Of a stretch of DNA of 28,629 bases, positions 7,901-13,900 are shown piece after piece; the first letter of the stretch is position 1; each line of letters starts with the position of its first letter. Source of the stretch: a virus (taxonomy: Duplodnaviria; Heunggongvirae; Uroviricota; Caudoviricetes); the IMG/VR virus record IMGVR_UViG_2627853869_000005. The stretch is one strand, 5' to 3'. The position numbers were made by a program.

Positions 7901-10900
7901 TCATAACATGCTTGACAACTTAATAGGGGCACTCCCCCGCTAAAGTGTTGCCCGAAAACTGGTGGCAACATCCAGCTGCATTAGGTGCAACTGACAGTGA
8001 TATCGAAATCATCAAACGTCAGTGGGGTGCGTTTTACGGTACGGATCTGGAGTTGCAACTGCGCCGCCGAGGTATCGATACAATAGTGTTATGTGGGATC
8101 TCGACCAATATCGGTGTTGAATCCACCGCCCGCAATGCCTGGGAACTTGGCTTTAATCTGGTGATTGCCGAAGACGCCTGTAGTGCCGCCAGCGCCGAGC
8201 AACACAATAACAGCATTAATCATATCTACCCGCGCATCGCCCGTGTGCGTAGCGTGGAAGAGATCCTTCACGCGTTATGATTTACATCGGTCTACCGCAA
8301 TGGTCGCATCCTAAATGGGTGCGGTTGGGGATCACCAGCCTTGAAGAGTATGCCCGCCACTTTAACTGCGTGATACGGAATTTTTAAAAATCACTAAAGA
8401 ACGCCCAAGAGCATGTTTTTTATTTAGAAGAATCAAAGCGTTGTATTTCCATGTCATATAAAAATCGGCAAAGTTCATATGTAACAAAGTGTCCCAATCA
8501 TGCCCCAAAATGCCCCACAACAAATATTTTTGCCCCATGCATGCCCCAAAAAATCACTTTCCTTCACCCTTAATACTGTTTATCCATACAGTTAAAAATG
8601 ATACTGTATACAAACACAGTGTAGAGGGACTTTTATGCGTATTGAAATCTGCATAGCCAAAGAAAAAATGACTAAAATGCCAACCGGTGCTGTGGATGCG
8701 TTAAAGGAAGAATTAACCCGACGCATCAGTAAACGTTATGACGATGTAGAGGTGATCGTAAAAGCTACCAGCAACGATGGCCTTTCTGTTACGCGCACCG
8801 CCGATAAAGATTCAGCTAAAACTTTTGTTCAGGAAACTCTGAAAGATACCTGGGAGTCTGCTGACGAGTGGTTTGTTCACTAATTAGCACGTAAAATCGG
8901 TAACGGCTGGAAATCATTCAATACTCGCACTATCGGAAGTTCACCAGCCAGCCGCGGTACGTTCTTACATACGATGTACCGCTGTTCTCTTTACGATTTA
9001 TAGCTGTACTGGTGAATTATGAGCAATCTGAATCCATGCATGACGTGTGGTGCCTGTTGTGCATTTTCCGCGTCTCTTTTTACTGGGCAGAAGCTGACGA
9101 TGCTGGCGGAAAGGTTTCGGTCAGTCTCACTGAGCAAATATCTCCTTTTCATCGCTGTATGCGCGGCACCAATCAGAAAAATCCCCGATGTGGCGCTCTT
9201 GCCGGCCCCCCCGGAGAAAACGCATATTGCTCTGTTTACAAAAACCGTCCACATGCAGGGAATTCGCAATGTCCGGCGAAAATAGCATCGTAAATGAAGC
9301 ATGTAATCGCGCACGGGAAAAATATGGATTTCCAAAAATCTGAATATTCTCCGCCGTGCAAAAATGCGAACAACATCACTTCACTAATCAACCTGACATG
9401 GCATACTTAGCACGCTAACTATGATAACAAACTAATACCCTAAAACTCATGGTTCCGGGACTGGTCGTGGTCCCGTTTTTTTATTCAGCCAGCAGGCCAT
9501 CCGACAACATAACTGCGGATCGCCTTCAGGTCTGTCAGCGCCTCAACCTCGGCTTTCATCTGCAACTGCCGTGTATTAATCTCCACTCCCTTCGCAAACA
9601 TCGCCTGCTCTGTCGCTTCACTCAGTGCCATCCATGATGCTGCCGTCATTGGCACATCATTATTATCAGCATCCGTCCGGAAAAATTTCTCTGGCAACTT
9701 AAAACAATATCCTATATATCCGGCGTCTCCGGTATGTAGAACGTGAAGTTTTTAAAATTATTTATTTACCATTTAACTAATTTTTAGATCCTGGGGTACT
9801 CCCGTCTTTTTCATTGCCTCCACGAAAGCGGAACTAACAGAACCTGACCAGTAATACTGGAACCCACTAACAACGCCCTGATAAATCATGGTTTGTGTAG
9901 CACCACCTACGTTTACGGTGATGTTAACTGCTTTACCACCGGCTAAATAAACAGCAGCTGTCGGTGTAGAGTTCGTCAAAAAGTGAGAAAGTGTAACGAC
10001 AGCCCCTACCAGCCTCCCTGATCCGCAGCTTGCGGCGTTTGTAATTGTACCTTTACTTTTTTCTTCTAAAGGCCAGTCAGCGCCAACTGCGCCCCAGTTA
10101 TCAACCTTGTCAGAGGATTTCCATTTATAGTACTCAGTTGCAATTTTACAGCCCATAGTTCGCCCAACCATTTGGCTCATCATAAAAGGTTTACTCAGTC
10201 CCAGTTTGGTTCCGGCGGCTCCCATCCACTGCTCACCTGTTTCGCTCTTAGCCGAAGAGCCTACCCATCCCGATGTTACCCCCATCTCATCTCCCCCTTC
10301 TGAATGCGTGGGGTGAGTGTCACCCCACAATTTAAATTCAGTAGAAACCAGAAACTACAACAGCTGTCGTTTACTTCTCCCGGAGTTCTTTAATCTCATG
10401 ACGAAGTGTTTTAAAGCCCTCGACTAACAATGCAATTATGCCGTTGTAGTTAAGACGCAGACGTTTTTCACCAGATATAACGTCTGCGTCTTCAGTTACC
10501 AGTTCAGGCAATGCTTTTTGTGCATCCTGAGCAATTAAACCAACCGACGTTTGCCAACCGTCGGCAGAGTACTGTATCTCGTAAAGATAACCAGTAAGTG
10601 CCTCCAGACGATCTAACGCATTATCCAGTTTTACCAGATTTCGCTTGTTGCGTTTATCCGAACGGATCTGAATATCGTTAAATGAGCCGTTTCCGGTCAC
10701 CGTCAAATTGCCATTAATACCACCATTAAAAGTTTGTGCCTGAGTCCATGTATTGGCAGTAGTAAGCAGTTCTGTTCCTTGCCCGGGGGCTCCTGTGTCT
10801 CCCTTCGGTCCCTGTGGCCCCGCCGGACCTGCTGGACCTGCTACTCCCGGATCACCTTTATCGCCTTTCGGCCCCGGCGCACCTGCCGGACCTGCTGGTC

Positions 10901-13900
10901 CAGCCACTCCCGGATCGCCTTTGTCACCTTTTGGCCCCTGCCGGGCCGGTGTCGCCACGCTCTCCTTTATCTCCCTTCGGCCCCTGAGGACCCGCGGGCC
11001 CCGGTTCCCCCTTTGGCCCGGGAGGTCCCACCACGGTGGGGATTCGGTTTACGGCCTCTTCCGCCGCTATCCTGCTTTGTTCCGCTGACTGTGCGCTTTC
11101 TGCTGACTCCCGGGCTTTTTCTGTTGCGGTCGTTGCATCCCTGACTGCATTACCGGCTGCACTTTCTGCCGTCTTTTTTGACAACTCAGCATCTGTTGCA
11201 CTTTGTAATGACTCACTGGCTTTTTGAGCGGCCGCAGAGGCCGAGGACGAGGACGCCTCCTCTGACTGCTTTGCTGAGGCTGCACTTTCTGCCGCCTGCC
11301 GGGCTGACTCCGATGCATCCCCTGCTGAAGTGTCAGCATTTGCAGCGCTCTCTTCTGCCTGACTGGCTGATATGCCGGCATTCCTCGCTGACGTCTCCGC
11401 CTCTCCGGCATTCTTCTTCGCCTCCTCTGCGTTACGCACCACCTCTTCCACCATCAGTTCAAAGCTACGCAGTGCCTCCGGACGGGCATCATCCTCAGTC
11501 ATGGCACCGAGAAAATCATTCAGCGTACCGGGTTGAGAATCTTCATACACGGTGATAGTCCCGGCATGTGACGGCGGGAATCCCTCCACCAACAGAATAA
11601 CGCTGTACTGACCATACTCAACGTCCATACTGTAACGCCCGGCTTCATCCGGATTTTCTGAGGCCAGCGTGTTCACCACCACCGTGGTACTGTTACGTTT
11701 TGCTTTCAGCTGGATTGTGCAGTTCTGTACCGGTTTTCCTGTGCCGTCTTTCAGTACACCAGAAATCTTTACTGTCATATTCACCCCACAAAAAAGCCCG
11801 CCTGAACCGGCGGGCTGTCATGACACTGTGTTACCTGGCTAATCAGAATTTATAGCCGACACCCACGATGAAACCGTCAGTGCGCCAGTCGCCACTGCCG
11901 GAACCTTCATAAGCAATATCAATGGCCACGGATTCGGTCGGGTTAAACTGCACGCCAGCCCCCCACGCCAGAGACGTGTTGCTGTGGCGACCGTCATCAC
12001 TTCCGGTCAGCACGTCGTGCGTTTTCCCCTTGTTGTCAGTTACGCGGAGATAATCCCCGGAGAAAGTCGACACACGGCTGTAAGCCACACCCGCCATCGC
12101 ATACGCGCTGAACCATTCATTCACGCGCACAGACGGCCCCGCCATTACGCTGAACCAGCGGTTACGAACGGAATCCTCATGCCAGCGGGTATCGCTGTAG
12201 TGCGTTTTTTTCTCATCTTCAGCATTGGCATAACTGAAGGACGTAATCAGCCCCAGCGCGTCCGTAAACTCATAACGGTATTTCACGTTAATCCCGTTCA
12301 GATTATCGCTGCCGGGAGCGTTCGTACGGGCATGAAGATACCCCGCGCTCAGTGTGGACTGATGTTCAGACGCCCATGCAGGCGCACCGGATACAGCCAG
12401 ACAGATGGCTGCGGACAAAATGGCTGCACAAACTTTACGCATAATTACCTCTCGCTTTTCTGCAATAAAAAAGGCGCCATTTCTGGCGCCCGTATATGGG
12501 TTATAAAATTCAGCTGATACTGATGCCTGCGGTGGCTTTCTTCATCACCACAACCAGCAAATCGCTGATACTTGCTGTGGGATACCAGTTATTCACCAGC
12601 CATGCTGATACCGAAAACTCCAGCGTCATGTGACCGTGACCGGCAGGCATATCAATAACGCAACTGTAAATCAGCGTATTATCCAGCGCGGTACGGTTAT
12701 AAATTTCAGCACCGTTTTTCCGCACTATCAGACGGCATGAGGAGTAAATATCAGTATGCTCTCTCTCATGCTTAGCGCCGCTGAATGCCACCGCCGGAAT
12801 AACAATTTGCCGGTCAAAAGGCTGATCGTCATAAATCCTGACGGTAACGGTCCCTGATGGCCACCGCTCCGGTGCCCGGGAGTCCCGCGGAAAAGCCTTA
12901 CCCACTGTTTTAACGAGATCGCCTTCAATCTGGTTCGCGGACAGTTTTCCCAGAACCCGGCAGTTCTCGTTAATCGTGACGTTGTTGAGCGTCCCGGAGT
13001 TCGCATTCACGTTACCGCTGATATCAGCATTTCTTGCGGTCAGCCTGCCCTCCGGCGTCAGGGAAAACGTCGGGGGATTGCCGGACGAGGTGATACTCAC
13101 CGCAAACAGCCGCTTCAGGAACACATCGTTCATGAACAACTGATTCCCCTGCGCCACAAATAACGGCGTGGTGTTGCCGTCCTCCGGGTTAATCATCGCA
13201 ATACGGTCAGCCAGCAGCAGTATGTTGCTCAGGGGCTGGCCATCAGTATCCTCAATCCCCGCTCCAATACCGGCAACATAGGGTATGCCATTTTTTGTTT
13301 TCTGTACCTTCAGCATGTAAAGTGCAGCAAGGTCATCATTTGTGTCCTTCTGCACGCGCTGTATCTGCTGTATGGTGGCGCTCTGGTCCTCCAGCGTTTT
13401 ACTGACCGTCTGTGTGATTTCATTGCGGGTTTCGGTGATGGTGGTCTTCATCTCCGCCATCTCATCCGCAAGCTGGCTGTTGTCTATCAGCTCCCACAGC
13501 CCCTGAGCCAGATGCAGTTTTCCTATTTTTTCCCGAAACAGCCCCAGATACCCTTCTGCATCATTGCTGGCCCGTCCACTGGCCTCCACAAAAGCAGATT
13601 TCCCCACCAGGTTGACGCTGCGCACGTAAAACCAGAAATCCTTCCCGGGCTTAATGTGCGGGCCGGATACACTCCACTGACTGCCGGTCCCCAGATAACG
13701 GGCAGAGGTTTCCACCTGAGATGTGTCTGCGATTTTTGCCTCCGAAAACCAGAACTCAAACTGTACCGTCGGGTCATACACCGCAAGACGCGGTACCGCT
13801 GTTATCTGAAAATACCCCGGCGTCAGTTCAATGGTGGCGGGTTTTGCTGGCGCGTTAATCCGGAAGGTGGTGGTGGCCGGTTCGCCCTGCTGGCCATAAC

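Follow-up and report, generated by a model that had tools for sequence, protein, structure and literature searches.

The side tail fibre gene on the 28,629-nt stretch of viral DNA analysed here (the window) is broken into two reading frames within its collagen-like repeats, which raises the question of what the break represents. A sequence-only reading had offered three answers: decay, a slippage-prone homopolymer that could switch fibre expression on and off, or an error of sequencing or assembly in a repeat. Our analysis points to the first of these. An EPclD-type fibre gene has very probably been inactivated by one 152-bp repeat-to-repeat deletion, and what is seen in the window would be an old, stable and inherited allele subject to neutral decay in a remnant prophage and not a switch.

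ORF reading bore out the basic arrangement, with two fibre halves lying in different frames and overlapping by 35 bp (Table 1). Both halves were found to align end to end, at 96–97% identity, with the single continuous 519-aa ORF of E. coli relatives so that they must be fragments of one gene rather than a chance pair of ORFs. The encoded domains run in the order PfN, an Ala/Ser/Glu-rich putative coiled-coil region, a collagen-like region, a gp37-like tip and a Peptidase_S74 chaperone. More specifically, PfN is followed in the N-part by a coiled-coil-like region and then by 11 Gly-X-Y triplets; composition and alignment identified fibre residues from about 134 to 250 as the same Ala/Ser/Glu-rich sequence that is present in the 519-aa proteins listed as EPclD. 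Identical copies of the N-part product are found in other assemblies. The C-part, named “tail fiber domain-containing protein” of Shigella boydii by NCBI, comprises what is left of the collagen region together with the fibre tip and an intramolecular chaperone, Peptidase_S74, and a Pfam search of it gave no match to PfC (PF06820). PF01391 (Collagen) was matched by both halves, and comparison of the fibre with NCBIfam returned only collagen-adhesin matches, all below cutoff. With J and then lom upstream, the fibre is fixed at the position of lambda stf.

Table 1 Features of the split side tail fibre gene and its neighbours in the window
Feature	Position	Strand	Basis
Whole side tail fibre pseudogene, EPclD type	10371..11778	-	End-to-end alignment with 519-aa ORFs, one 152-bp gap; Pfam domains
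N-part ORF, 284 aa from ATG 11778	10924..11778 (open from 11784)	-	ORF reading, Pfam
PfN (PF08400, phage_tail_N), aa 1-133 of N-part	11380-11778	-	Pfam, E = 7e-68
Premature TGA stop, 8 nt past junction in shifted frame	10924..10926	-	ORF reading
Deletion junction, sole remaining copy of 7-bp direct repeat CAGGGGC	10934..10940	-	Alignment with intact alleles
Collagen-like (Gly-X-Y) coding region	10779..11028	-	Pfam Collagen; repaired translation
Two tandem 63-bp (21-aa) units, 81% identical	10875-10937 and 10812-10874	-	Autocorrelation
C-part ORF, 195 aa from GTG 10958, other frame	10371..10958	-	ORF reading, Pfam, NCBI WP_050548807.1
Peptidase_S74 (PF13884) chaperone in C-part	about 10494-10661	-	Pfam
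Gp38-like tail fibre adhesin gene, 170 aa, downstream	9773..10285	-	Pfam Gp38_N; phrog_1121 “tail fiber adhesin”; gene call in L004
Terminator-like hairpin and T-run, between lom and fibre start codon	11795..11816	-	
lom (Ail/Lom outer-membrane protein), directly upstream of fibre	11843..12442	-	ORF reading, Pfam
J, upstream of lom	12510-15983		ORF reading, Pfam

The Pfam Collagen match places the frame break inside the Gly-X-Y coding stretch, as had been described, and after conceptual repair Gly occupies every third residue across 83 aa. The tandem DNA repeats had been estimated at about 57 bp. Since Tandem Repeats Finder, run at a low threshold, reported neither a 57-bp nor a 63-bp array, the period was set by autocorrelation, which peaked at 63 bp (0.56) and was at background at 57 bp (0.275). 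The 63-bp repeat, whose units begin just 3′ of the break with encoded unit ends (AP/PQ), is what actually underlies the earlier remark. The homopolymer noted at the break does exist, as a G4 followed by an A4 at the junction, but there is nothing special about it: the 250-bp collagen-coding part holds 8 runs of at least 4 bases, so that a run at the break is to be expected, and the longest run anywhere in the fibre gene is 6.

Alignment with the intact alleles revealed a single 152-bp gap with a 7-bp CAGGGGC microhomology (152 mod 3 = 2), so the lesion is not a one-base change. The intact 519-aa allele has 402 bp of collagen-coding sequence and the window 250 bp. In the ancestral 519-aa allele the short motif CAGGGGC(C) occurs three times. 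Misalignment of the first copy with the third would have taken out the 152 bp, probably through slippage during replication or through illegitimate recombination. The first copy is read as gCA GGG GCa and the third as CAG GGG CCa; as the two stand in different codon phase, the deletion is not a multiple of three. The ensuing shift of frame brings translation to a stop 8 nt downstream of the junction. The N-part thereby retains the domain for virion attachment, the putative coiled coil and its 11 collagen triplets, while the collagen beyond the break, the tip and the chaperone for folding are left stranded in the other frame. An origin in two steps was also considered, in which a 144-bp in-frame deletion between 11-bp repeats (GGCCCGGCAGG) would have been followed by an 8-bp deletion, but no 471-aa intermediate was present among the homologues and a single 152-bp event is therefore preferred.

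The homologues further indicated that such losses recur. In-frame length variants of the fibre (498, 492, 486, 483, 468, 465 and 411 aa) differ in the collagen region only. In S. boydii, where the locus has the shared order J-lom-stf-gp38-like-DinI-yecD, one other lineage carries a 99-bp in-frame deletion with CAGGGGCC microhomology whose downstream endpoint is that of the window deletion, and another carries a 324-bp in-frame deletion with CCGAAGGGAGA microhomology. Three deletions between similar short repeats, of 99, 324 and 152 bp, mark the collagen-coding array as a recurrent deletion hotspot. That the CAGGGGC(C) motifs are what makes the collagen shaft such a hotspot, giving rise to fibre-length variants with out-of-frame alleles as by-products, appears more plausible to us than rescue of the split gene by the +1 frameshifting discussed below.

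The surroundings of the gene are those of a decaying element. The major tail gene, truncated by an IS1, has been cut down to its Ig-like C-terminus next to that element, beyond which lie chromosomal pocR and an IS3-family transposase, and an ISEc49-like element of the IS66 family is located between tail genes T and H. A tail module was the only phage module found on the 28.6-kb contig, with no head, lysis or regulatory genes within it. In some strains the gp38-like gene, lom or J is likewise split. Judged from its gene content, the prophage is a decayed S. boydii remnant that would be unable to make virions, and this argues that the split fibre reflects neutral decay and not a regulated switch. 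Other prophages of the same genome could in principle make use of these tail genes, the reading here having covered only the 28.6-kb contig; such use would speak against a dead gene.

Among the alternatives, the one that fared best, although we regard it as very unlikely, is that leaky or programmed +1 frameshifting at GCC AAA AGG TGA restores some full-length fibre. In this mechanism, with the rare AGG codon waiting in the A site, tRNA-Lys would slip from its AAA and pair anew with the AAA that overlaps it. The FSscan model of +1 frameshifting in E. coli rests on a Shine–Dalgarno (SD)-like stimulator, P-site re-pairing and a hungry A-site codon (PMC2790909), and all three ingredients can be recognised by inspection in the junction AGGGG-CC-AAA-AGG-TGA, namely an SD-like AGGGG 2 nt upstream, a slippery P-site codon and a slow A-site codon. 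The shifted product would read GPAGAKGDKG, in perfect collagen phase. However, the site arose through a deletion specific to this lineage and is missing from the intact homologues, which are single ORFs sharing neither the two-frame organisation nor the shift site, and it is thus not a conserved recoding signal. Moreover, the remnant prophage has no detectable use for a fibre, and the gene is preceded at a short distance by a hairpin resembling a terminator. A literature search for precedents of +1 frameshifting at AAA-AGG yielded the FSscan framework only, with an untabulated pspD test sequence. It is accordingly most improbable that a chance junction has become an efficient +1 site from which the “pseudogene” would still yield a collagen-like fibre, shortened to 468 aa; were it so, compensatory frameshifting would be rescuing a repeat-mediated deletion.

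Even less probable is a phase-variable (contingency) locus in which slipped-strand mispairing in the G4 or A4 toggles fibre expression, a slippage-prone switch having been one option of the sequence-only reading. The frame does lend itself to such toggling, in that one G or A fewer at the junction would give a perfect Gly-X-Y frame and a 468-aa protein. However, contingency tracts made of a single base usually span about 7 nt or more, whereas the two tracts here are of only 4 nt, like others nearby, and no long mutable homopolymer was found in the fibre coding region. The tracts also do not vary: comparison of homopolymer length in relatives recovered the same junction with G4 and A4 in all 11 independent-assembly loci examined (among them those on two complete chromosomes, CP162080.1 and CP160647.1, and in an assembly made independently from SRA data), despite SNPs elsewhere in the gene that distinguish these loci from one another at gene positions 319 and 1135. 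Among the top homologues in protein databases, none was an in-frame protein bearing this junction. A scan of genome contigs for the junction, allowing a G-run of 2–6, returned 0 matches in a collection holding one genome per species in which S. boydii strains are not represented, and a scan of metagenome contigs with both runs free to vary also returned 0 matches. The presence of a 152-bp deletion, in a prophage unable to make virions, likewise leaves little room for a switch.

The same invariance disposes of the proposed sequencing or assembly error. The region is GC-rich and repetitive, the window is a draft contig, and the contig of one relative (L015) ends within this region; yet the identical junction recurs in at least 11 loci of different assemblies, and the 195-aa ORF that spans it is recorded on 158 contigs whose NCBI names are S. 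boydii, which excludes an error and leaves this explanation with almost no probability. An equally negligible chance attaches to the two ORFs being two genuine genes, as RefSeq annotation has it for the related E. coli loci L001 and L002 (PGAP gives a “missing C-terminus” pseudogene and a 110-aa “tail fiber domain-containing protein”), given that translation of positions 3007-4566 of both yields one uninterrupted 519-aa ORF, that intact relatives in general carry one ORF and not two separate genes, and that single full-length proteins of 411–519 aa occur in many genomes and in the literature as EPclD (PMC3368898). The two-feature split in L001 and L002 is an annotation artefact.

We thus return to the inactivated gene. 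Decay is supported by the loss of 152 bp between 7-bp direct repeats and by the fixation and invariance of the allele within an S. boydii lineage, in a remnant riddled with IS elements. The split gene has probably lost its function, although the N-part might still trimerise and bind tails. An AAGGAG lies 3 nt upstream of the GTG at 10958, and independent expression of the C-part from that codon was considered; its product would be devoid of the virion-attachment domain.

Overall, the locus is a fixed pseudogene produced by ordinary decay, of little importance beyond correct annotation, and provides no evidence for a new regulatory mechanism. Both ORFs are best annotated as one EPclD-type side tail fibre pseudogene and not as two fibre genes, and the intact 519-aa ORFs of E. 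coli have been wrongly split by RefSeq. With three independent deletion alleles at one chromosomal locus of S. boydii, it is also a tidy case of a collagen-coding array in which short repeats, some in phase and others out of phase, give recurrent deletions. Such recurrence goes some way to account for why collagen-like phage fibres vary in length, and the locus could be used to mark lineages.

Comparison with known systems places the gene within a family but leaves it distinct from working examples. With homopolymer-tract contingency loci, as in Neisseria, Haemophilus, Campylobacter and phase-variable phage tail fibre systems, it has one thing only in common, namely that the frame would flip on insertion or deletion within a run of G or A; it differs in that its tract is too short, shows no length polymorphism in the 11 loci and owes its frameshift to a large deletion. 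Unlike an intact inducible lambdoid prophage, the window does not have complete head, tail, lysis and regulatory modules. The closest system is EPclD, the prophage collagen-like side tail fibre proteins of Ghosh et al. (2012, PLoS One 7:e37872; PMC3368898), of which the window gene is a member, albeit as a pseudogene. Published examples are S. dysenteriae SDB_03138 and E. coli EC4100B ECoL_05072, of 519 aa, and S. boydii BS512 SbBS512_E1096, of 411 aa; they combine PfN, a region of ~116 aa predicted by PCoil to be a trimeric coiled coil, a collagen triple helix whose length varies by multiples of three and a C-terminus unrelated to PfC (PMC3368898). Neither “frameshift” nor “pseudogene” is a word in the text of that paper, and frameshifted copies are not described there, although stf is cited (PMC3368898). 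The domain order, with a coiled-coil-like stretch after PfN, agrees, and so do the lengths of the intact alleles found here (519 and 411 aa) and the position after J and lom, whereas the window copy, its frame shifted by the 152-bp deletion, does not have the continuous ORF of a functional member.

Hendrix and Duda reportedly described in 1992 how stf of the laboratory phage lambda PaPa is split into orf-401 and orf-314. In both cases the affected gene encodes a side tail fibre of one N-terminal domain family and is located downstream of J and lom; a frameshift has split it in two, and the virion or prophage tolerates its loss. In lambda, however, the change is of a single base, lies outside any collagen repeat and is carried by a viable phage, as opposed to a repeat-mediated deletion in a defective remnant. 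Lastly, residues 405–518 of the intact fibre match PDB 6F45, “long tail fiber distal subunit” (E = 1.9e-12), and the downstream gene matches Gp38_N and the PHROG “tail fiber adhesin”, as in gp37/gp38 of the T2/S16 type. T2/S16 fibres are long tail fibres of myoviruses, whereas the side fibre encoded in the window is that of a siphovirus, its N-terminus being of the lambda type and its shaft of collagen, and may assemble with the adhesin. Given the tip match together with the Gp38-like gene, receptor recognition is probably delegated to this downstream adhesin, which is likely to be the true receptor-binding partner of the fibre.

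The side tail fibre gene, read on the minus strand, is split into two ORFs that lie in different frames and overlap by 35 bp (see the table). The N-terminal part matches PF08400 (E = 7e-68), the N-terminal domain of prophage tail fibres, and also carries the beginning of a collagen repeat, while the C-terminal part, whose frame is free of stops from 11048 (stop-to-stop), carries a collagen repeat and a Peptidase_S74 intramolecular chaperone domain. These ORF and Pfam analyses bore out the coordinates, frames and overlap of the sequence-only reading, as well as its placing of the break within the Gly-X-Y region. 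The gene follows J and lom, the position of stf in lambda. A Shine-Dalgarno-like hexamer, AAGGAG, was observed at 10959-10967 (minus strand), 3 nt 5' of the GTG of the C-terminal part; it derives from Lys-Gly-Glu codons and is probably a coincidence, and such a hexamer could let the C-terminal fragment be translated to some extent on its own.

Features of the split fibre gene and its neighbourhood
Feature	Coordinates	Strand	Remark
IS110-family transposase	6710-7906		cuts yecD in two (region 6231-8280)
DUF4376 C-terminal remnant	9485-9697	minus	
gp38-like tail fibre adhesin gene	9773-10285	minus	downstream of fibre gene
C-part ORF	GTG 10958 to stop at 10371	minus	195 aa; frame other than that of N-part
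63-bp units (two)	10875-10937 and 10812-10874		81% identical to each other
N-part ORF	ATG 11778 (or GTG 11784 by ORF listing) to TGA 10926-10924	minus	284 aa
Terminator-like hairpin and T-run	11816-11795	minus	between lom and fibre gene
lom	11843-12442		directly 5' of fibre gene
Terminator-like hairpin and T-run	12472-12491	minus	between J and lom
J	12510-15983		5' of lom
H, tail tape-measure	18588-21749		
ISEc49-like IS66-family element	~21806-24556		between H and T/G chaperone genes; tnpA, tnpB, 533-aa tnpC at 22593-24194
T	24637-24918		
G	24942-25364		
Major tail protein	25331-25735		Ig-like C-terminal piece only; adjoins IS1
IS1 transposase	25737-26240		
pocR	26476-27402		chromosomal; beyond IS1
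IS3-family transposase	27807-28628		contig end

Among 5,426 complete E. coli genomes, full-query coverage was found at only five places, each 152 bp longer than the window. Two of these were fetched (NZ_AP045820 and NZ_CP147059), and both contain an uninterrupted 519-aa ORF (translation of 3007-4566), with which the window is collinear save for one 152-bp gap. RefSeq/PGAP annotates the same interval in both as two features, a ‘missing C-terminus’ pseudogene and a 110-aa ‘tail fiber domain-containing protein’, a split that is an annotation artefact since translation yields a single uninterrupted ORF. The breakpoint is ambiguous by 7 bp, CAGGGGC, found at each end of the deleted segment and left in the window as one copy at 10934-10940. 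The upstream copy is read gCA GGG GCa, whereas the downstream copy is read CAG GGG CCa, so recombination between them was out of frame; because 152 leaves a remainder of 2 on division by 3, reading past the junction is out of frame and meets a premature TGA after 8 nt. Loss of 152 bp between two short direct repeats is thus the cause of the frame break.

The junction text, AGGGG-CC-AAA-AGG-TGA, unites the ingredients from which FSscan models +1 frameshift sites in E. coli, namely an SD-like element, P-site re-pairing and a slow A-site codon (PMC2790909): the P-site AAA is able to re-pair in the +1 frame, the rare AGG codon occupies the A site and an SD-like element lies 2 nt upstream. By conceptual translation, the shifted product would remain in collagen phase. 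That such frameshifting rescues the fibre to any biological effect is nevertheless highly improbable, the prophage being dead and the site a chance product of a lineage-specific deletion.

Besides decay, a slippage-prone homopolymer run acting as a phase-variable switch and a sequencing or assembly error had been proposed for the break. The window is the entire contig AMJZ01000029.1 of GCA_000815685.1, and its 284-aa product, present on 10 contigs, is identically encoded by other NCBI assemblies and one SRA-derived assembly. The 195-aa ORF, whose first residues cross the junction, was found on 158 contigs with lengths up to 4.66 Mb and has database names given for Shigella boydii (WP_050548807.1, SPZ76079.1); a 178-aa version with an internal start occurs on more contigs, among them the complete chromosomes CP162080.1 and CP160647.1. 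The junction reads GGCA-GGGG-CC-AAAA-GG in all 11 loci readable across it, and the gene measures 1414 bp (from GTG 11784) in each. These loci differ by SNPs at gene positions 319 (A/C, Ser/Arg105) and 1135 (C/T, synonymous), and since the junction is the same despite them, the frameshift is older than the split between these strains, with run lengths constant ever since. This constancy of G4 and A4 in relatives argues against a switch, as does the lack of any repaired-junction protein (GDTGPAG[P/A]KGDKG, 468 aa) among the top homologues, where the two 468-aa proteins have other junctions. Junctions with variable run lengths gave no matches in a species-representative genome collection or in metagenomes. 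Nor is the run a special feature: it is merely G4 followed by A4, and with eight runs of at least four bases in the 250-bp collagen-coding part (the longest in the gene being six), a short run is expected at any given point. Phase-variable receptor binding would, moreover, have no obvious role in such a prophage remnant. Sequencing or assembly error is refuted by the recurrence of the junction in all 11 loci, other assemblies included, and of the 195-aa ORF on 158 contigs.

The tandem repeat of about 57 bp described previously was not returned by Tandem Repeats Finder, and autocorrelation at lag 57 was at background (0.275). The maximum in the 250-bp collagen-coding stretch (10779-11028) was at lag 63 (0.56). 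The database variant protein P0002 (199 aa, ENA contig) has three copies of this 21-aa (63-bp) unit whereas the window has two (10812-10937), and the array therefore expands as well as contracts. Full-length homologues, otherwise 89-99% identical, have lengths of 519, 498, 492, 486 (two kinds), 483, 468 (two kinds), 465 and 411 aa; this variation is confined to the collagen region, between near-identical flanks. The 486-aa and 411-aa alleles occupy the window's own chromosomal locus in other S. boydii assemblies, with the common order J-lom-stf-gp38-like-DUF4376 remnant-DinI-yecD. The former arose by a 99-bp deletion with an 8-bp microhomology, CAGGGGCC, whose downstream endpoint (reference position 990) coincides with that of the window's deletion, and the latter by a 324-bp deletion with an 11-bp microhomology, CCGAAGGGAGA. 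The three deletion alleles (152, 99 and 324 bp) therefore represent at least three independent repeat-mediated deletions in one gene at one locus, and the collagen region is a deletion hotspot. Only the window's deletion used repeats in differing codon phases; as the repeats lie mostly in codon phase, in-frame outcomes would be expected even without selection.

Upstream in the operon lie I, K, L, M and H, and past the DUF4376 remnant DinI, yecD (isochorismatase family) and aspS; no head, lysis, replication or regulatory genes were found in the 28,629-nt contig. The hairpins on both sides of lom are consistent with an independently expressed moron. In some sister strains (L010, L017) the IS110-family insertion in yecD is missing or an extra IS1 lies nearby. 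Sister S. boydii loci also have genes split into two ORFs: the gp38-like gene (L009 and L011, 3123-3635), lom (L017 and L018, 3347-3936) and J (L018, 1-3279). From these extra splits, strain-specific decay of the same remnant is still ongoing. Decay is likewise the explanation upheld for the fibre gene: the deletion allele is fixed and stable across assemblies, and the split gene is a pseudogene, in a cryptic prophage, of the EPclD fibre family. This is ordinary decay in a family already published.

Prophage collagen-like fibres have been classed as EPclA to EPclD (Ghosh et al. 2012, PMC3368898). EPclD includes S. dysenteriae SDB_03138 and E. coli EC4100B, of 519 aa with a 135-aa collagen domain, and S. 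boydii BS512 SbBS512_E1096, of 411 aa with a 27-aa collagen domain, and the same paper remarks that collagen-domain lengths vary by multiples of three (PMC3368898); 519 and 411 aa are also lengths of intact alleles found here. The N-terminal 94 aa of the fibre match a ‘tail fiber protein’ of known structure (9e7m/9mgh) and residues 405-518 match 6F45, a ‘long tail fiber distal subunit’ (E = 1.9e-12), while the product of the downstream gene contains Gp38_N and has a match in PHROG to the ‘tail fiber adhesin’ family. The 6F45-like tip and Gp38-like gene suggest a lambdoid side fibre paired with an adhesin in the T2/S16 manner; by analogy, the receptor is probably recognised by the downstream adhesin and not by the fibre shaft. 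The split gene has a parallel in laboratory lambda, whose side tail fibre gene, stf, carries a classic frameshift.
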